Assembly: GCA_951804945.1 (NCBI GenBank) | Contig: OX638153.1 | Span: 66,154,001-66,218,000 of the forward strand | Direction of reading: 5' to 3' | From: Podarcis cretensis | Lineage: Eukaryota | DNA length: 64,000 nucleotides | Shown: piece after piece, positions 15,956-48,481 of the stretch | Numbering within the stretch: the stretch's first letter is position 1 | Layout of the letters: each line of letters begins with the position of its first letter | Position numbers and translations under genes: made by a program | Notes under the pieces: model-generated | The model's database searches: none | What the model saw: the letters and a program-made list of their open reading frames with translations, nothing else | Told to the model about the DNA's origin: nothing

Positions 15956-16894
15956 CTGAGAAGAAAAGAATGTAAAATTAAGATTATTAGTTTAAATACT
16001 ATTACATTCTGCTATTTTGAGGTGGAAAAATTGTTCATGGAAAAGCTACCTACTCTACTCTCTACACCTCCTTTGATTGTTCCTTCCTCTTGACTCCAAT
16101 TGTGGAGTCTGGCCTGGCTCAAAAAAACCATTCCAGGCTTCTTACACCACAATTTATTACAACAGAAGTATCAGGACTGAAACCCTTTCCCTTGCCCCTC
16201 TTTGCCATTAACGAACTCTGGCTTGTTTTAAGACAGAATTCCCAACACAGGTGTACCTAGGGTCCCTTGCACTCTTGGTAAGGAGCTGTGTTGGCACGTC
16301 CCCTCCCCCACCCGGAAATATCACTTTACTGCAGAGGACAGGAAGCTTTTCCTGCATTTGATCTCACCATGACAGCAGCGTCACATTGTCACACACATAT
16401 ATATGTCATGCACTCCATAATCCAATATCCGATTTCTGCGTTCCCGACAAGGGGTGGGTTTTGCTAGCCCCTAGGTACGCCTCTGATTTCCAACCCTGAC
16501 ATAGCCAGGATTTTCAACCAAAAAGGAAGGAGGAGTGTTTGGCCCAGACACAGGACAGAGGGAGTGCATCTGTTCCTGCTTCTAGGGCTCTCAGCAGTTT
16601 TTTTATACTGTTGGCTACAGTATCTTCCAGGACTAGCTCTGTTGGATAGTTTTAGGGGCACTTTTTTAGTGGTTCTATTCCTACCTGTAGGGCTGTGCCC
16701 AGAGAATAACACTGGGAGGTTGCGTCTCAGTCCCATGATCCTTGTGTTATTGTGTACCGCAGGGCACAATCTTGTTGCCAATATGCTGCTATTAGTAGCA
16801 GCTATTACAAGTTATGGGGCAAAGCATAATCAGTACACTGGTGACATGTAGCTCTATTTCTCCATAACATCTGAGTTAGGAAAGGCTGAACATA

Positions 16895-19130: not shown

Positions 19131-20841
19131 GTTTATGGAGGTGAAGAATCTGGGGGGAGAGAGATCAGTTTTAATCAGAGATATTTAAAAGCAGGCATTT
19201 GAGAGATTATACAAAATTTGGGGGGGGGGGACCCACAGAAAATTGTTTAAAATTGATAAAATCTTATTAAATTTCTGTGAAAAGGAGCAAGTGAAAGAGA
19301 TTTTGGTAAAATGGCAAAAACTGAAGAGATGTCAACCGTGTGGTTAGTACATGACCCTGTACTAAAACAGTATTGGAGTAAAATAAAAACCTTAACTGAG
19401 AAGGTAGTGCGTTCTCTCTTTTAACCTCCACAAAATATCATCTTTCAAGAACTGACTAGCTAGATAGTAACCACTAGGTCATGATATGATAAATGCTGGA
19501 AGTAACATAAATACCAAACATATATGAATGGGTAAATTATTAACAGCCAAACTGACATCTTTTATAATAAAAGAAAATGATCAAATGGGAAAAGTATTTT
19601 AATAATGTCATATCTACATGCTTGAGTGTAATTCTGGGAACACATTTTGAAGTTGTGACTTAAGCACCAACATCCATAATATCCTGCAGAATAAGAGTGT
19701 GAAATCCGAGTGGAATTCCTAATAATTAAATACTGCATATGCCTGTTTCAATAGGAAATAGCTCTCTGTGGACATCAGAATTATGTATGGAGCTGAACCC
19801 GCCCACGACTGGAATGTGGGCCCCCTGAGAGCTTTCCACCCAGCATGTCCTCAACCTACAAAGGTTTTGCCCCTATAGCTCATACATGCACAAGTAGAGA
19901 GCTATTGTTGGGGGAGAATTTTCATTTCGCTCGTAACTCAACTTTGAAGTATAAGCGCTGAGGAAGTTATCCAGATAGATGCAGGAGTCGGGAGAACTTA
20001 ATCCAGACTCCCACTCCGTAAGCGAGAATCGCACATCCTCTGCAAACTGCCCCCCTAGAAGGCCCACCCAGCACGTCACTCCTGCTCTTTCAGCACACAC
20101 GACACATCCCCAACCTCCAACCGGAAATCTGTCGCTATACAGAGCGAGCACAGCTGTGCTGCTCTTCTCCGCAATGGCATTTTGGAAATCCTCCACTTTC
20201 GAGGAGGGCAAGGCGCCCCCCGCCCGCCCCCGTCTCTTTTGGAGGAGAAACACCCACCGGAATAATGAACCCTTCCCGATTTCATAAGCGATTTTCCTCC
20301 CTCGCCATCCCGTGCTTGACTGTCTCGTAGTAGCGTGGGAAGGAGCACCCAATGGTCATCTAGTCTCCACAAACACACACACACACCCTACATACAATAC
20401 CGTGATCGCAAGTGTTTTTGAGAGCCCCCTTCCCCGATGCGTTTTCGTGGATAAGTCACGTTTGCAGTCAGCTAAACTTGCTGACCCATCTGTCTTTTTG
20501 GCGGCGGAGATACAGCGTCAGTCGCAACCCATTTCCTCCCCCGACACACCCCTTTCCCCATTTCCTTCCAGCCCGCTCTTCCCTGCTCCCACCCGAGGCG
20601 AAAATGCCGCCCGCGAGGCAGCGGAGGGGCTGAAACCAGAGCAAGGGATGGCGGGCGGGGTATTTCTCGCCTGAAAAGCGAGGTTTCCCCCCCCCCCCCT
20701 CGCCTCACAGAGAGACAGGCGGCGGCTCCCAGCGGGCCACACGAACGCACGCGGGCGCGCGCCAAGGGAAGGAGCCCACGGCCACCATCCCCCCGCGGTT
20801 GCCCAGCCCCAGAGAGAACCTCCTCACGGGCAACGCCTCAC

Positions 20842-20930
20842 CTGGCAGCCGCGCCCCGTCCTCGCTTGCTAAACCGCCGCCGCAAATCTTCGAACCCGCC
20901 CAACCGCTTCACGGAGTTCCGCGGCGCATG
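20842..20930 (-). other. SEPTIN2: SEPTIN2 putative non-coding exon 1
   Basis: Minus-strand donor CAG|GTGAGG (GT at 20841-20840) inside the CpG island; the 5' end is estimated. Confidence 0.6.
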
Positions 20931-21213
20931 CGCGCTGGCGCCTTCCCACCCCCTCCCGCGGCCTGTGTCCTTAACCCGTCTCCATCCGCAGCGTGAGGCA
21001 AAGACAAGCCTCTTCGCGAAAAGCGCCCCCGCCCCGCGGCCCAGCCTTCGCACGCGACAAAAGCATGGGGGTGGGTAGTAACAAAGGCGCGTGCGCGACT
21101 CAGCCAATACTGGCTCGCTCAGCCCCGCCTCCCCCAGTTGCTATAGTGATACCCGAGGGCAAGGATGGGGGGGGAGGAGTTTCCCCCTTTATCTTGGCGG
21201 GTCACGCACAATC

Positions 21214-21281
21214 CTTTTCCTTTACCAAGATGGCGGCTGGTCCTTCGTATTCGGCATAGCTGTGCTGCGAGCCCATGCGAG
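21214..21281 (+). other. HDLBP: HDLBP putative non-coding exon 1a
   Basis: Pyrimidine initiator CCTTTTCCTTT, YY1 motif, strong donor GAG|GTAAGA at 21281/21282. Confidence 0.7.
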
Positions 21282-22938
21282 GTAAGAACGTATGCCTCCC
21301 GCAGGCCAGCCAGAACGTAAAGCGTGGAGCGGTAAAGGTATACACGGAGCAATTTGCTAGTTTGACCTTTCTTTTCATGAAGGTTTTGGGCCATGGCGAG
21401 ATCACATTACCGAAACAGGGCCTGCAACGCGCGGGAGCTCCGATATTAACCCTCATTAGTAACTCTATGGTGTCTTCAATTTCAATTGGCTGCTGGAGGG
21501 CACGTGGTGTCACTTGCCCAGTACCATAGAGAGTGCGGGAATGAGAGGTCGTAGGGGGATAGGCTAGAGGTGACCAGCTGTGGGAGTTCCTTTGCATTAC
21601 TTCGTATTAGGTTCCAAACGGCGAACCTTGCGCTTGTCTCTTAACCCAGTAATTCATTGCAAGCCGTGAAAACTATAAGTGATCTCGAGCCCGCATTTTC
21701 CACTCCCACAGAAGCAAAATCATGTGTGTAAAATGTTCCCTACTATAGGATAGCCAGATACAATTCTCACAAAAGGGATGGGGTCTTTCCTCATCGCTAC
21801 ATGCCAATCACCTAGCAAATGCCATATATTAAGCTACTGGTAATGTACAGAAGCCCTGCTCTCCTTTGCACCTGGTGACCCTGTTATGTTCATGGACTAC
21901 TGAGACCCATACAATGGAGAATTTAGCACTTGTTCATACTATTTTCTGCCAGGCTGACACATCTCTGGCTTTGAAAAGCCCTTCATCTCGGTTTTATGCT
22001 GTGCTTAAATTACAAAGGCCAGCTGTTTTTGTGAATTTGATGTTGGCCCAGGCTACAATAGCTTCCCCATTTGCCACTTTACAGATTTTATTACATCTTT
22101 TTATAACATTTATTTAAGATTTTTTTTTGTTATACGTATCTGAAAATAAGTCTCATTGAACTCTGCAGGACTTATTTTAGAGTAGCCATGCATTAGAGTG
22201 CACTGCAGCAAGACAACATTACCAGTCTTATTAGTAGTCCTGGGTTTGCATGTTATGAATTGGTAGCTTGCTAATGAATAAAAGAATAGATGCAGAAGAG
22301 TAGAAATAAGCAGGATATTTTTGCAACAAAGGTAGAAACTTCCAAAGCTCTGTAATTAGACAAGAATTATTTAACTTACTAATAAATGATTAGGAACTGG
22401 TATGAACTGCAAGATAACCATTTGCAGAATTTGAGTTGGTGTGATCTCAGCAAAATTTGAAGAGCTTGAAATGGAACTCTTCCAATCAGGTTAGTGAGTA
22501 ACAGAAAATGCAGATTCAGTTGCTAATCCCCTGCAAATTTACTTTAAAGCAATTCTTGTTTTGCATGATGGGACATGCAACACAATCCTGTGTGTTTTTA
22601 CTTAGAAGTAAGGTCTACTGGCTGAATGACAGCTTTCTTCTGAATAACTATTTAGAATTTCATTTCCGACATACACTGCTAAAGTTTGGTCTGCAGTCAT
22701 ATCCCCTACTTGCATTCTTCCTCAATGAAGCCTAAATGTGTAACAGCATTTGCTTCCACTTCTCTCTTACTACCAGTTCCTATCCTGTTCCTAGTCTCTG
22801 TCACTTATTGTCTCAAATACCAACAGAATGTAGATTTCAAAAATGCAAGGAATTGGGCTCTTCACATGCTCAAAATAAAGCATGCATATTTAACAGCATT
22901 TTATTTTTTAAAAAACTTGTATCTAGTATGGTCTACAT

Positions 22939-30999: not shown

Positions 31000-32220
31000 T
31001 TCACTCCGACTCCGAAGAGTTTATGGGGCTTATTCTGTGGTAGTCTGCGAGTTTAGGATTGCAGGCACGCAGCACGAACTTTTTACACGTTTCCTCGGAA
31101 TACATGCCCAAGGTTTTGTTTCTGAGTAAACGTGCACATGGTCGCCACGTTTTGCTATGGAGGAGGTGGAAGAGTTCCTTTTCGGCTTTCGCCCCCCTTC
31201 CCTTCAGTCCTCCCTTGGCGGCGGGGCTAGTTGGGGGACTTGCAGCTGGGGCGGGAGCGGCTGCGTCGCTTGACCCAGCGCTTCTCCCCGCCTCCCCAGT
31301 CGCTGGCAGCTGGGCCGGGCCTTCCCAGGAAGGGAAAGGGAAGGGGCCCGGCTCGTCTGACGTGTGAGCCTGGGATTGGCAGCCTCTCCCCCATATAGCA
31401 GACGGGAAGGTGCCTCGCCGCCTTCCCGGGAGCGCTTCGGGGCTTCTCCAGCAGAGCGAGCTAAGCGGGCACGGGCCGGAGTGAGTGCCACGTACGGGGC
31501 AGGAGGGCGGGCGCGCGGGCCGGGGGTGGCGGGAGAGCAGACGGGAAGGCGGCGGCAGCCGCGGGGGTGCGGAGCAGGGGCAGCGGAGAGAAAGAAAGGG
31601 GGGATGGTGAGGAGGAGGAGGAGGAGGAGTAGAGAGAGCGAGAGCTGCTTGCCGACGTGGAGGCAGAGAGGAGGCGCCGGCACGGGCTGTCCTCCCGCGT
31701 CCTCCCCTGCGGAGCTGCCCCTCTCTCCGCATTCTCCCCCTGGAAGACGGAGGGTGACCCGAGCGGGGCGCACGCTCCGCGCCGGGGCTCCGTCCCCTCG
31801 GCAGGGAGGCGAGGAGCAGGAGGAGGGGCGGGGGAACCGATCGGGCTACGTGTCACAGGCGCGCGGCAGCCGGATCTCCTCCCCCTCCCAACTCAGCCGC
31901 AAAACTTTGCCCCAACTTTCCTGGCCAGGTTCTTCCTGCTCCTCCGAGGAGCGACGGGGGCGGAGGAGCAGCGGCGGCAGGGAAAAGAAGAAAAAGCCCA
32001 CTCCTCCCTCTCCGGGCCGGCGCGTCCTAGGCTCCTGACCTTAAACGAGCCAGAAGAAAAAGCCGGGAAAGGGAGGGGGGGGCGAAACGAGAGGCTTTGT
32101 ACTCTATCCTCTCCACATACCCCGCTCCATTTTGCAGGAGGGCCCCAGGCAACATTCCTAATCCTGTGGCTGATGTGGACATTGCAGAGGGCAAAAGCGG
32201 GACGCGGCCCTAAAGCCTGC
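31000..32220 (+). promoter_or_regulatory. HDLBP: Second CpG island, putative alternative HDLBP promoter with exon 1b (about 31400-31480)
   Basis: CpG/GC-rich non-repeat island within HDLBP intron 1; ATTGG 31375-31379; TGACGTG 31358-31364; donor GGA|GTGAGT at 31480/31481. Confidence 0.7.
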
Positions 32221-40429: not shown

Positions 40430-41190
40430 TTTACTAAGCAAATAAAATGGATCAGCTGTGTACAATTATTTTCCATATATTAGATAAATATTTCCCACTC
40501 TTCTTTAAATATACGTTCTTCTTGCAAGTTCTGCATATTCTAACATAAGTTGCCAATCTTCTTTAGAGGCGACTTCGCTCACTTTCTATTTTTGGGCTAA
40601 CAGAACACGGGCCACTGTTGTTGCATACATAAACTCTTCTGGCTTGTTTATTGTTTCCCATTCTGATAAGAAATTATACATTTTAGACAGAAGTTTATCC
40701 TTATTTTGTAAAAGTTCTTTTTCAAATTGTGAGCTTTGGTCCAAAAAACCATTTTTTTGGTCTACCTTAAACATAGCATATATTTGGTGGTATTGTAACC
40801 AATCCGTTACTTGGCTTCTTAAGTTCTCCATAGGTTTCAGTCTGGGTTCGCCCCCTGCAAAGTCCAGCAATTCCATGTAAGTCACCCATTGTCTGTCCAT
40901 ATTAACTCTCTTAATTGTAATTGCTTCAATGGGGGGTGTTTTTCTTTCTAGCAGATTTATATTTCTCCCAGACTCTATACAAATTCTTCCTGAGAATGTG
41001 GTTCATACTGAACACATTCATGCCTGCCGAAGTTTAAGTCTTGGCCTTCCAAGTCTAAAATATCTGCATTATCCAATATAATCCATTCCTTTAACCAACA
41101 CAAACAAGCTGCCTCGTACAATTGCAAGTCTGGCAAAGCCCCTCTTCCTTTTGTATCTATCAAAATTTTATATTTAATTATTGGCTTTTC
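40430..41190 (-). mobile_element. Degraded L1-clade LINE ORF2 C-terminal fragment
   Basis: ORF 40975..41163 (KGRGALPDLQLYEAACLCWLKEW) and ORF 40586..40900 resemble the post-RT GGLxLP region of L1/Tx1 ORF2; internal deletions. Confidence 0.7.
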
Positions 41191-42677: not shown

Positions 42678-45461
42678 ACATGGGAATCAAGAACCGACAT
42701 CAGAATTACCCCCAGCTGTTACAAAATTCTGGCATTGCCAAGTGATCTGCAGCTATTTCCCCTCCCATCCGTCTTTCGCCTTCCCTTGCCATTCTTCACC
42801 TTGCCCAATATTATTTTATTATATTCTGCTGAAGCAGTGCCTTGGTCTAATCTCCATAGCATACAGCAACGTTTCAGACCATTCCTCAAGTCACCTCAGG
42901 GTGCCAAGGCACACTGGTTGGAAACCAGTGATTTTCTCTCCCCCCCCCCCCCATGTTGTAAGCCTCCTTGAGCATGCTTTGAACATGGTTTTATTCCATT
43001 TCATTGTTTTCATAAGTAACATTTTCTCTAGCCTCTGCCATTCAAATCTGTGCAGCTTCGGGGGCATGATGAAACCAGCAGCTGTGCCACGAGGCTACAT
43101 TCCTGTCAGGCAGGCACTAAATCAAGTTACAGCACCCAAACGGTCTCAACTTGAGCTCAGCCTTCCTGGAACAAAGTTAAGCCACTAAACCCATACCCAG
43201 CTAGCAGGAAGTTCTGAGCAAAGGGTGTTGGGGGCCAGAAAAGGTGGCAGAGCCAGGAGAACGACAGCCTTGAGAATAGGGCCAGATCAAGGGGAGAACA
43301 TACATAATTAGTCAGACCTCTGTATGCTGGTGACAGTAAAAGTAAGGGGAGCACTGTACCACTGTTCCTGCTTTGCAGTTTGCTGAGCCTGTCAGTCATG
43401 ATTAACCCTGGAGTCCTCCTAGTACCTTTTTCTTGAGAGCCAGTATAGGAGACCAGGGTTCAAATCCCTGCCTGGCTGTGATGCTCACCGGGTGCAACCT
43501 TGGGGTGGTTGCCGTCTTCTGTCAGCCTAACCTAAAACAGATTGGCTGGCCGGCCATTTGCCAGAGATTCTTTAGCTGCGATTCCTGCATTTCAAGGAGT
43601 TGGACTTGATGACCCTTGGTGTACATTACAATTCTATGGCTCCATGAAGCTCTAAAGAGTTTGATAAAATAGATGGGAAGCATAGTTAACATGAACTCCT
43701 TGACGATCTTCTTCCATTAAGGGTTGTAGGACAGATTGTTTGTTTTTGCGGTCTGAGCTGTAGCCACATGTGCCGGCAGATGTACTTTCTGTCCCACAAT
43801 AGTGCAGATGCCACACTGGTTTTCTGTTAAGCCACCTTGTCTAAAGCAGTGACAGGCCTTGAATAGTGACATGAATATTCAGTGTTGGCTCATGCAGAGC
43901 ACATGCTCTTCTAGTCTATCCCAGCTTGACCCTGTTGCAAGAAACACTGTCTTGTACCCCAGTTTTGTTCACAGTAAGTCAGTTGTCATGATTCGGTATA
44001 TACATTCTTGATTACCATTTAAAATCTATCCACTTTTATTTACCAATACCAGGCCTAGATCCGTGTCATAGAGCCACCAAATTCCCGATGTTAGTGCCCT
44101 GTGTTAATGCTATAAGCTTTCTGAGTGGCAAGCCCTGCTAAAATGTATGTATTTGTATTAAATTTTCAGCTCTCTTCCTTCTGGGTCATTCCCCAACAAT
44201 TACAGTTTTAGGCTCCTATCCTTGTCCTTCATTTTCCTTCTGGAGCAGCGATTACACGTTTCTTAGGTGATTACAGTTGTGGATTTCAAATTTAGTTTTA
44301 AAAGCGAGGAAATACGAAGATGCTCCAGTCTCGTTCAAGCTGACTTTGCTGGGATTGCACTTGTTCCAAGAAATGTTCAAAGTAGATTATGGCCCTACCC
44401 ATAAATGCTGACTGTCTCCGCTGCTGCTGCTGCTGTTTTTCTAAGCTGGTTTGATCAGTTTTACCCAGTAGCACAGGTATTTGTAGTTAGACATCTAACT
44501 CCCACTGAACTCCTGTTGGGATGTTGGAAATATGTTGGTAACTTATTTGTTTTCAAACAAAGATCTCTGGTCAAGTTTGGAGCTCTTGCCTCATGTAGAG
44601 TTTTCAAAATGCCAGTCACATACACATGTGCACAAGTTGGGCATTGCTGGTGTGTGTGTGTGCATGTGTGCGCGCACATGCACATATTAGAGCTTAGAAT
44701 TGCCAGGAGCTGATTTAATAAAACTCTGTACTTTTCTCAGCCTCTGATTGTAAGAAAGTGCATGTTTTACCCAGGCTCCACTAAACTGCATTCCTATCTT
44801 CTGACTGATGTCCGTTTTCTTGGCAGGTTTTTAATCTGTTAGTTTCTCTGTGTGTCACCCAGTTGGAGATGCTTTTACAGCCATGAAACTTCAAATTCAT
44901 ATCTTACATCTGCTATTCATTTACTGTTTCTTAGCCTAAAATTACGTTGAGTAGTTTTTGCTGGAGAATGGACAGGCAGTTAAGCCCAAAGTCCATAGGA
45001 AATCTTAAATTACAGTTTGCAGTTGAAATTGATGAGATTATTTGGATGATGCAGAACACTTTGCTGTACTGTTGCACCCAAATAGTAGTACATTTTTTTA
45101 TTTTTCTGGAAATAAAATACTATGTATTGCTGGTATAACCTTTGATTGTATAGATTCATTATGTTCAGCATTCAGATTATATGTGGATGAGTGGGTTAAG
45201 AATGTGCTGAAATGTGGATATGAACAGTGACGTTTCCTCCTCCTTTTGTGTGTTGATTTTAAATTGTTTACTTGTCTGTTCTGTATTTTGCTTTTTGTGG
45301 GGGAAGTACACTTGTTGCAAGGCAGGTTGCAAATTCATTATTGAAAAACAATAATTTACACTTCGGATCCTGATTTCCAAACTCATGAAACTGTATTGTG
45401 ATTTTATGGAATTTTAGCACTCTTAGAGCAGAGTAACTATTGTTTCTTTCTTTCCCCAAAG

Positions 45462-45529
45462 CAGAAGCTGGCAGGCTGACAAACAGGCAGCTCACAGGAC
45501 GGACTTTCTGGCTACTGACCATTTAGCTG
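45462..45529 (+). other. HDLBP: HDLBP non-coding exon 2 (start 45462 or 45465)
   Basis: tttctttctttccccaaag/cag acceptor; CTG|GTAAGT donor; resembles the mammalian HDLBP 5'UTR as remembered. Confidence 0.8.
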
Positions 45530-47331
45530 GTAAGTTTACAGATCTATGTGGTTAAGTTTGTATGTCAGACTTCTGGCCCATGGTCCTATTGAACGCTAGG
45601 AGTTGTATTCAGCGTAGCGCTAAAAAAATTCAACCCGTGAAAGGAATTCTCTTTGCTCAATGGAACGTTCTCCACCTCTCCTCCCCCCACCCCATGCAAT
45701 CTGGTTTCTCCTCAGATAGTATAAATCTTTCGCCTTGTACCCATGCAGTCTGTTCTGGCGGTCTCCCCCTACCCTTGTGAGCAGTTTTGGGGGTGTTGCA
45801 GGGGAACAAGAGAGGGGGAAATCCTGTTGCACTAGCAAAGCTATTGAGTTCACTACCAGCCTTGTTTTTAGTACTGCCCATTAATTATTTATAGATTTCA
45901 CATGACTTACCTAAAATATTCCAGCAAGTACCTGTAACAAAGAGTGGTTCTTCAAGGTGTGTGTGCGCGCGCATGCATGCTTGCACATAAAGCTGGTATT
46001 TTAAAAGGAAACTATAGCCCACATAGTTGAATATGGTCCATGCCCAATGCAGAATGAACTTCAGCTGCTGCTTTTAAGAATTATTGTTTCTAGTGTTCCA
46101 GTAAGAAGGAAAGGGAAAAAATAGTGTTTCTTGCTAAACCCGTACCTTGAATATTCCCATCTCCTCCTAACAATAATACCCAAGTTAAAAGTAGAAAAGT
46201 GATAAAATGATTAAGGGGAGAAATTCTGTGTAAATGCTTAAAATACCTAGATTAGCTCCAAAACAAGATAATTAAGGGGGACAGAAAAGAGGTTTACAAT
46301 TGTGTAGATAAAGTGAAAAGAGATTATGTTCCCTTTCTCACAAATTGTTTCCTAATTCTTATAATTAAGAGGCAGCAGGGCTAAAAAGTAAGTACCTTTA
46401 ACATGGCACAAAATTAACTTGTTCTCTGGGACAGTTGAAGGCTAACTTTGTATAACTGCATTCAGAATAGTGCTAGAGAGTTTTGTACATGCCCAATTAA
46501 TCATGATGGTTGGGGTTATATGTCCCCACTTCCAGGTATTCTTTACTTTCTGACAATAGCAAAGTGATTATTGGCTAGATTGCTCTTTCAAAGAAATCAG
46601 GCTGCTCTATTTATTCTAAGGTATCTAGAATTGGAACTAAACCCTGCGTTTGAAGTAATGTTGATGCACCTAAATCCCTGATTTGGGTTCTGGTCATATT
46701 GAAGTTTCTGTGTATTAGGGGGGAGCATATAAGGCCAATGTTCGCTTCTCTGCCCTACAACGTGTAAAAATACATGCTGAGGTTGCATGTGAAGAGGACT
46801 AGTTACATCTATAATAGCCCACTATTTGTGGCAGATGCAGCAAAGGCAGACTGATTTAGTCAACAATTTCCCAAGATAACATCTTTTCATTTTATATTTT
46901 GTAATGTTAAAAATTCAACCAACAGCTCCTCATATTAGTGCACCTTACTGTCACTGACGTTTAAGTCTGCTTGAAGAGGCGGTGGGCATGTTGCTGTTGC
47001 TTCTAGAGGGGGAATAAGTGCTTTTGCAGCAACCTTTCCCAGCCTCAAAGGAATAACTGAAGTAATACCATGCAGCAGCGAAAGCAATGGATCAGTGTTT
47101 TTCCAGGCTGGCTGGGAAGAAAGGCACTGCTTACAGCCCTAGGAGAAATAGTTGTGGCTAGGAAGAGGTACTCAGCTAGGGACAGTTTCAGCTTGTGCCA
47201 GGCAAGTGGCCAGTCATGCCACTTCTACTTTCCCTCCCTATTTAAATGCATCCTGCTAGTAATTATTACGGTGTTTCCCCTTTTGTGCTACCAGTGGCAT
47301 ACCCGGATTGTGCGTGGGTGGGAAATCGACC

Positions 47332-47407
47332 ATGAGCTCTGTGGCAGTTTTGACCCAGGAGAGCTTTGCTGAACATCGCAGCGGCCTTGCTCAGCAGCAA
47401 GTGAAAG
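47332..47407 (+). CDS. HDLBP: HDLBP first coding exon (MSSVAVLTQESFAEHRSGLAQQQVK); exon starts 47295
   Basis: accag|TGG...ACC ATG AGC TCT...AAA G|gtaag; vigilin N-terminus; 76 coding nt. Confidence 0.96.
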
Positions 47408-48481
47408 GTAAGACTGCAAGGCAAGGCCACTGGAAAATCCCTTTTTGATAACTTCTGCATGAAAGTGGCATATTCAGCTTCTACTACATACTCAAATATT
47501 ACTTTGCTGGCAGTGTTCAAAACTCCCATTGTTCTAGGCACATTTTGCGACCAGGGATTTCTTTAGTGCACCCATTTTCTGAGCTCTGGGCGCAGTACTG
47601 CGCCATAGATTTCAGAATAAAACTGCAGAGTGGAAGGAAAGGAGGACCTTTTTCTGCTTCCCCACTTCCATCTACTCTCTGAAGACTGGATAAGAGACCC
47701 TCTTAAGAATATTAGGGGGGTGGGCAGGGGAAGGGCATGTGAAAAATGAACGTAAGATTTTAGCTACGGTTCATTCATTTTCAGCTTTGTATTCTTGTTA
47801 TAAGAAAAGAGTGCGTAGACATTCCGTTGTTGCACCCAGAACCTAGCTTTAAGGTGCCATTTAGCTCCTAGCTTTCATATCTCAGTTTCTAACACTGTTT
47901 CCTGGGGAGCCACTAGCCTGAGGGCTGAATGTGGCCCTTGAGGCCTCCCTACCCAGCCCTCATCATCTGCTGCTTTTCCTACTTCCCCTCTCTCCTTGAG
48001 AAAGCTTTTTTCAAGCCTAATTGTGGCACAGAAGGGGGTGGGGGTTACAGCTGGGGAAGGAAGAGTTAACATACCTCCAGAAATGCCCCTTGCACCATAT
48101 TTAGGCTGGGGGGGAACCTTCTAAGAAGGCCTTTTCTAGTCTAATTATAGTGGGAGAACCATCCCAGAGGGTTCAGCTGGGGTGTGAAAGCATTTAAACC
48201 TTTTACAAGGCATGTGTGTTTGTGTAGATATTGTGTGTGTGGCCTCGCCCACTTATTCCTTGACCATACTCCTTTTGGTGATGGAGGGTTGGCCAAGCTA
48301 CCATAGTGTTGGCCAAGTAGAATGCAGTTCTCAGGCTGAAGAAGGTTTCCCCACCCCTGTTGTGGGAGGGAGTGCAAGCCGGCCTTCCTGGGGTCTTTGT
48401 TGCTTGAATGAGACAGCAAGTTTGATACTCGTGTGGCAAAGGGCTGACAACAAAATACAAGGGTAAGAGAGGTTCAGAATA

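Follow-up and report, generated by a model that had tools for sequence, protein, structure and literature searches.

An exact TISU element opens a nine-codon upstream reading frame in exon 1a of the vigilin gene (HDLBP) of Podarcis cretensis

Results

The HDLBP-SEPT2 locus

The window analysed here, a stretch of 64,000 nucleotides of Podarcis cretensis (contig OX638153.1, positions 66,154,001 to 66,218,000), carries HDLBP, which encodes vigilin, on the plus strand and SEPT2 as its divergent, head-to-head partner (Table 1). Vigilin begins with MSSVAV at 47332 on the plus strand, a downstream exon matches vigilin 2cte (E 3.4e-39) and an exon of the minus strand matches septin-2 (E 4.2e-15). The two genes start ~330 bp apart in one CpG island (observed/expected CpG of 0.91 at 20001-21000), and the putative bidirectional promoter between them holds NRF1-like (20924 and 21087), CCAAT (21104) and GC-box sequences, all of them matches to the well-known consensus patterns only; the same consensus scan found no TATA match in this interval (20889..21211). 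On the SEPT2 side, tagged 5' ends of a close relative (15 reads) fall at 20888, and spliced loose ends at 20842 map to an exon ending at 19141. The SEPT2 first exon is 47 nt long and AUG-free, and the single-cell run X20 contains 125 spliced reads for it, compared with 207 for HDLBP exon 1a. Two more YY1-like cores are present on the plus strand at 20601 and 20648 (AAAATGCCGCC and ATGGCGG), in SEPT2 intron 1 and within the same CpG island. Farther away, open stretches in HDLBP intron 1 (40586-41002) and in a SEPT2 intron (16468-16851) resemble, by eye, decayed retrotransposon fragments.

Table 1. Positions of the features of the HDLBP-SEPT2 locus in the window and the evidence on which each is placed
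Feature	Position	Strand	Evidence
SEPT2 first exon, divergent partner at shared CpG-island promoter	20842..20888	-	Tagged 5' ends, spliced reads, septin-2 match
Putative bidirectional promoter	20889..21211	.	Consensus matches only
12-nt pyrimidine tract with start cluster; YCTYTYY match at 21213-21219	21212..21223	+	Sequence and X20 tagged 5' ends
HDLBP exon 1a; donor GTAAGA at 21282	21215..21281	+	Reads continuing into exon 2
Exact TISU / YY1-type element, CAAGATGGCGGC	21226..21237	+	Sequence match
uORF1, 9 codons (MAAGPSYSA), TAG at 21257-21259, out of frame with vigilin	21230..21259	+	Sequence
Second upstream AUG, weak context cccATGc; uORF2	21275..21281 (exon 1a part)	+	Sequence and splice from reads
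Candidate exon 1b, no ATG, donor GTGAGT at 31481, second CpG island	31429..31480	+	Motif common with mouse exon 1B
Non-coding exon 2, 65 nt	45465..45529	+	Acceptor from reads; donor from sequence and likeness to mouse leader
Exon 3 with vigilin AUG at 47332 (accATGa)	47295..47408	+	Acceptor inferred from sequence

Exon 1a and its 5' ends in a close relative

Transcript evidence over 20300-21800 was drawn from 4 of the 24 listed runs, all of them from one close relative, whose sequence departs from that of the window here and there, for example with C for T at 21215; no difference between its reads and the window is listed for 21216-21281. The splice at the end of exon 1a (21281) was present in all four runs (30, 35 and 207 reads, and one contig), and the sequence joined to it maps to 45465. 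According to this, and to the vigilin and septin-2 matches, the assignment of the region to HDLBP exon 1a made in the initial annotation is correct.

The 5' ends come from run X20 only, of which ~6% was read. Its loose ends consist of a fixed 11-base tag followed by eight variable bases and four G; we take this tag to be the Smart-seq3 5' tag, in which case the last of the four G would reflect the cap. Among the positions listed, tagged 5' ends fall at 21215 (23 reads), 21218 (72 reads) and 21219 (40 reads), with 26 further loose-end positions outside this list, and the 21215 position is blurred (agreement 0.56). In line with this, and as a check from within the data, the tag also marks the start of SEPT2 at 20888, pointing the other way, and these tagged starts are not preceded by a stretch of G that could cause strand invasion. 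The plus-strand depth of X20 is 10 in 21167-21217, 202 in 21218-21268 and ~210 at the exon end and, because it jumps at 21218, few molecules begin within uORF1 and most begin before its AUG. Against this, molecules of two bulk runs (5 of 15 and 6 of 11) end at 21231, within the uORF1 AUG, probably through 5' loss during library making. The tagged ends therefore place the cap 11-15 nt before this AUG in the relative, upstream of it as had been proposed.

Which kind of initiation these ends represent is a separate question. The initial annotation had described a TCT start giving 5'TOP mRNAs, and the motif itself, CCTTTTC at 21213-21219, is an exact match to YCTYTYY in the window, displaced by one base in the relative. 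Moreover, the 5' ends do lie in a pyrimidine tract, and the 21215 group lies on the match. The rest of the claim fared less well: 112 of the 135 listed tagged reads start at 21218 or 21219, 3-4 nt downstream and off the TCT match, so that the full match underlies only the smallest of the three listed groups and initiation at the motif C+1 (23 of 135 listed tagged reads, in the relative and in one run) is not dominant. The commonest start, 21218, begins with U (72 of 135 listed tagged reads) and is followed through a run of 6 pyrimidines, compared with 5 for the 21219 start and 9 for the 21215 start. The 5'TOP pattern, a capped C followed by 4-15 pyrimidines, is found at 21219 and 21215 but not at 21218 and, with most listed tagged ends off the TCT match and more than half beginning with U, these do not look like strict TOP ends. 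What can be stated is that the relative initiates predominantly at pyrimidines: none of the listed positions is a purine start, and the upstream depth is low.

The TISU element and its surroundings

TISU elements direct cap-proximal initiation with little leakage and also bind YY1. The consensus SAASATGGCGGC is matched exactly and in the sense direction at 21226-21237, as the initial annotation had it, and, counted from the tagged starts of the relative, the motif begins at +8 to +12, within the +5 to +30 range of such elements. The spacing had been misplaced: the 16 nt attributed to the motif are the distance from C21214 to the ATG, and the motif begins 12 nt after C21214. The element is the single exact match in the window, and none of 100 shuffles yielded one. 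Genome-wide there are 1196 exact matches, compared with 45 for the reversed control, which marks TISU as a real but common element. YCTYTYY on its own is weak evidence, with 160 plus-strand matches in the window, 6 of them in 20400-21400.

To place the combination, the first 30 genomic TISU matches were inspected. Twelve lie in a CpG-rich context; three of these have YCTYTYY within 35 nt upstream, three open a frame of at most 15 codons ahead of a donor-like site, and the two features never coincide. Among all 30, one match combines an upstream YCTYTYY with a short frame. A stop this early is expected by chance in 20-29% of cases. Each part is common, and the combination is uncommon, yet not extraordinary. 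In the same survey, two pairs of exact TISU matches on C1 (L020/L021 and L027/L028) lie in CpG-rich sequence with the members of each pair at most 200 bp apart, and L020 carries an extra AAGATGGCGGC just upstream.

Upstream frames and leader anatomy

The AUG of this TISU does not start the main ORF. It opens MAAGPSYSA and stops at 21257-21259, out of frame with vigilin, exactly as first described, and 124 nt separate its stop from the vigilin AUG at 47332. Two elements go beyond the earlier claims. The first is the second upstream AUG (21275), whose frame, uORF2, has 22 codons, spans the splice and stops at 45526, out of frame and 40 nt before the vigilin AUG. The second is the AUG-free alternative exon 1b, placed by a mouse exon 1B motif that was found once, and in none of 100 shuffles.

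Exon 1a, exon 2 and 37 nt of exon 3 add up to a leader of 165-171 nt, in which the joint between exons 2 and 3 is the probable one, going by splice signals and the mouse leader. At the start of exon 2, two acceptors lie in tandem (NAGNAG, aag cag AAG, 45459-45467), and most reads are spliced to the one before 45465 (agreement 0.93-1.0). Just upstream of the vigilin AUG, a TTG (47308) and a GTG (47314), both in weak context, are in frame with it and open, 8 and 6 codons upstream. Two further candidates were discarded, namely an RNA structure in exon 1a, which folds worse than 187 of 200 shuffles, and an N-terminal extension of vigilin from the upstream AUG, whose frame stops and is out of frame.

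Comparison with the two mouse promoters

Both mouse Hdlbp promoters are represented, for fibroblasts, in the supplement of Tamarkin-Ben-Harush 2017 (PMC5308895), of which the relevant parts were consulted; the sequences were read by eye, taking the table sequences to begin 10 nt before the listed start, as the control rows indicate. In mouse exon 1A (p2@Hdlbp) the 18 bases through the AUG (21218-21235 here), TCCTTTACCAAGATGGCG, are identical by eye. This block occurs once in the Podarcis genome and includes 8 bases upstream of the TISU motif. Beyond it the frames part: by eye, the mouse uORF has 13 codons compared with 9 here, and 2 of 9 residues are identical, the first two, which are common because the motif forces them. 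The small peptide of the mammalian leader is reportedly 13 residues long and located in exon 1A. A conserved 13-residue peptide is not what the present frame encodes, with its 9 codons and 2 of 9 residues as in mouse. Judging from this alignment, the DNA cassette is conserved and the peptide is not. The spacer between the uORF1 stop and the main AUG is 124 nt here and 136 nt in mouse. In mouse, the element departs from TISU at one position and the summit start, a C|A, lies 27 nt ahead of the upstream AUG; for these two reasons the mouse numbers are only a proxy for the present leader.

In control cells, the 1A mRNA is 97% polysomal in both replicates (PMC5308895). Its heavy/light polysome ratio (5.38 and 1.56) is 0.5-0.6 of that of 1B (8.65 and 3.15) in the two replicates, a gap that vanishes on the source's own occupancy measure (log2 5.04 and 5.20 for 1A vs 5.10 and 4.13 for 1B). 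The lighter 1A is suggestive only, and would fit repression of vigilin by the uORF.

Under glucose starvation, the log2 occupancy changes in the two replicates are -1.59 and -0.65 for 1A, -2.41 and -0.44 for 1B and -1.79 and +0.60 for Gapdh, while the pyrimidine-start controls change by -4.80 and -2.48 (Eef1b2), -2.13 and -2.47 (Eef2) and -3.15 and -2.64 (Gnb2l1); Actb was left out of the controls, as its row represents an internal promoter (PMC5308895). The special energy sensitivity that had been proposed for exon-1a mRNAs is not borne out by these mouse values, the controls ranging from -2.1 to -4.8. With 97% of the mRNA on polysomes and a starvation shift short of those of the pyrimidine-start controls, the mouse orthologue is well translated and not TOP-like at the promoter level, and the table consulted does not type 1A as TOP. 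The heavy/light ratio of 1A went from 5.38 to 5.88 and from 1.56 to 2.09 under starvation and that of 1B from 8.65 to 3.12 and from 3.15 to 1.93, a difference between 1A and 1B that is inconsistent on the occupancy measure (PMC5308895).

Discussion

The element described in this work is orthologous to a uORF already reported in mammals and belongs to the known class of TISU-led uORFs. The initial annotation had mentioned a report of a uORF in a human vigilin leader, and such a report is in print: the title of Rohwedel et al. 2003 (PMID 14504658) announces regulation of vigilin by a small leader-encoded peptide. Furthermore, in the parts consulted of Fritsch 2012, footprints from human THP-1 cells led to the prediction of a known HDLBP uORF as well as of the annotated main start, and this uORF probably begins at the AUG discussed here. 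The mammalian exon 1A uORF shares with ours the gene, the exon, the AUG, the 18 bases identical with mouse, an AUG-free exon 1B as alternative and a long spacer to the main AUG; ours differs in having 9 and not 13 codons, an exact TISU and a shorter exon, and the dominant starts are pyrimidines in the relative vs purines in the mouse summit and in human.

With respect to TISU elements in general, those of human genes have a median leader of 12 nt (range +5 to +30) and bind YY1 (Elfakess and Dikstein 2008, PMC2518114, as far as consulted), and the present element agrees with them in its exact consensus, its sense orientation and an AUG 11-15 nt from the cap. It differs in that its AUG is not the main start, which places it with the 36% of 554 human TISU genes whose main ORF lies downstream (median leader 192 nt, compared with 165-171 nt here; PMC2518114). 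Close precedents are USP12, USPL and JPX, in which a cap-proximal TISU AUG opens a first-exon uORF conserved across vertebrates, and mutation of the AUG in USP12 and JPX raised downstream luciferase (Hezroni 2017, PMC5577775, in the sections consulted). Those uORFs typically overlap the main AUG, whereas uORF1 stops 124 nt before it, an arrangement that would permit reinitiation.

Our preferred reading, held with moderate confidence, is that uORF1 is likely translated and likely lowers, without blocking, the output of vigilin from exon 1a, most of the vigilin probably arising from reinitiation 124 bases on. Short uORFs followed by a long spacer permit reinitiation. In this mechanism, YY1 would support a cluster of starts immediately before its binding site. 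The TISU AUG, close to the cap, would capture ribosomes, which would translate the nine codons; a fraction of them would then mostly bypass the weak second AUG and, 124 nt on, reinitiate at that of vigilin. The net effect would be a partial dampening relative to exon 1b, which would supply an AUG-free leader so that promoter choice would set translation yield. Selection would probably act on the DNA/RNA cassette and the short frame, not on the peptide.

The strongest competitor is that the element has been retained solely for YY1 binding at the promoter, with most ribosomes passing the upstream AUG and the short frame barely affecting vigilin; since the YY1 core needs ATGG, the AUG would then be a by-product. 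We consider this rather unlikely, although a good part of the evidence is compatible with it. Conservation stops at ATGGCG, after which the peptide diverges immediately; downstream main ORFs are frequent among human TISU genes, as cited above; the genome has 1196 matches, of the 12 sampled in CpG-rich context 3 open a similarly short frame, and so early a stop arises by chance in 20-29% of cases; and the mouse 1A mRNA is heavily polysomal. However, TISU reporters gave no detectable leakage past the element in the parts consulted of two studies (PMC2518114; Elfakess 2011, PMC3177215), the human footprints support initiation at the uORF, mouse 1A is lighter than 1B in both replicates, which as polysome data would read alike under reinitiation and leaky scanning, and the conserved block takes in the 8 bases upstream of the motif.

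A more elaborate possibility, which we put forward tentatively and regard as unlikely, is that the TISU uORF acts as an on-ramp for ribosomes, which would be loaded at the cap without scanning and reinitiate at vigilin, so that 1a would have a lower basal yield but resist stress while 1b falls. The lead for it is the heavy/light ratio of mouse 1A, which held or rose under starvation while that of 1B fell, and it fits the reported resistance of TISU mRNAs to glucose deprivation, a resistance that does not extend to rapamycin (Gandin 2016, as far as consulted). Should this hold generally, the TISU genes that have their main ORF downstream, about a third, would make up a class of mRNAs buffered against stress by reinitiation.

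Even less probable is the proposal that TCT starts produce 5'TOP mRNAs and that mTOR inhibition or energy stress switches off vigilin synthesis from exon 1a. It can draw on the 63 of 135 listed tagged reads that have a C followed by at least four pyrimidines, provided that the 21215 group starts with C, on the dominance of pyrimidine starts in the relative, unlike the YR-dominant human HDLBP, and on the rapamycin sensitivity of TISU mRNAs (Gandin 2016). Against it, the tracts that follow from the two main starts are only 5-6 pyrimidines long, the start with most reads begins with U, and the starvation shift of mouse 1A is smaller than those of Eef1b2, Eef2 and Gnb2l1 in a table that does not type it as TOP. 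A TOP-like minority may exist in mouse 1A, as the starvation comparison is made at the promoter level and is dominated by the purine start. In the parts of Nepal 2020 (PMC6954239) consulted, human HDLBP is a dual-initiation promoter that is YR-dominant in K562, GM12878 and HepG2, zebrafish hdlbpa is dual as well, and such promoters make up 42-45% of those expressed in human; from dual-initiation and TCT promoters the present one differs in its main starts off the TCT consensus, its short tracts and a mouse orthologue that is not TOP-like. The leader does not look like a strong TOP switch or a new mTOR switch.

That the uORF peptide itself inhibits vigilin synthesis, as proposed for the mammalian leader, is the least probable reading and a very improbable one, for although the title of Rohwedel et al. 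2003 and a mouse frame whose 13 codons match the length reportedly given for that peptide speak in its favour, only the first two, motif-forced residues are common to mouse, length and stop differ, and a peptide acting through its sequence would be expected to be conserved. That the start cassette is fixed and the peptide free to vary speaks against the inhibitory peptide proposed in print.

Vigilin aids the translation of mRNAs of the secretory pathway, which gives the control of its own leader some interest. New in this work are a non-mammalian instance of the uORF, the conserved cassette with a free peptide, the pyrimidine-dominant starts of the relative and the evidence against energy sensitivity. 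Our literature search, which covered few subscription papers, found no vigilin uORF named as a TISU or compared beyond mammals. The locus offers a native case for an under-studied question, the fate of ribosomes on those TISU genes in which another AUG opens the main ORF.

Other human data were considered and set aside. The HDLBP ORF of Sandmann 2023 differs from this uORF, and an HDLBP row was not found in the supplement of Chew 2016. The predicted DENR-MCTS1 dependence of 0-20% for human HDLBP was rejected as a guide, because the underlying formula falls steeply with uORF length and the figure is silent on a 9-codon frame. Finally, every species examined has a second upstream AUG in exon 1a, at differing places: here it lies 7 nt before the donor, in mouse it overlaps, by eye, the uORF1 stop, and in human it opens a Ribo-seq ORF beginning MLIRVEQ, which can be lined up by eye with the last part of mouse exon 1A, at a point where mouse has ACG.
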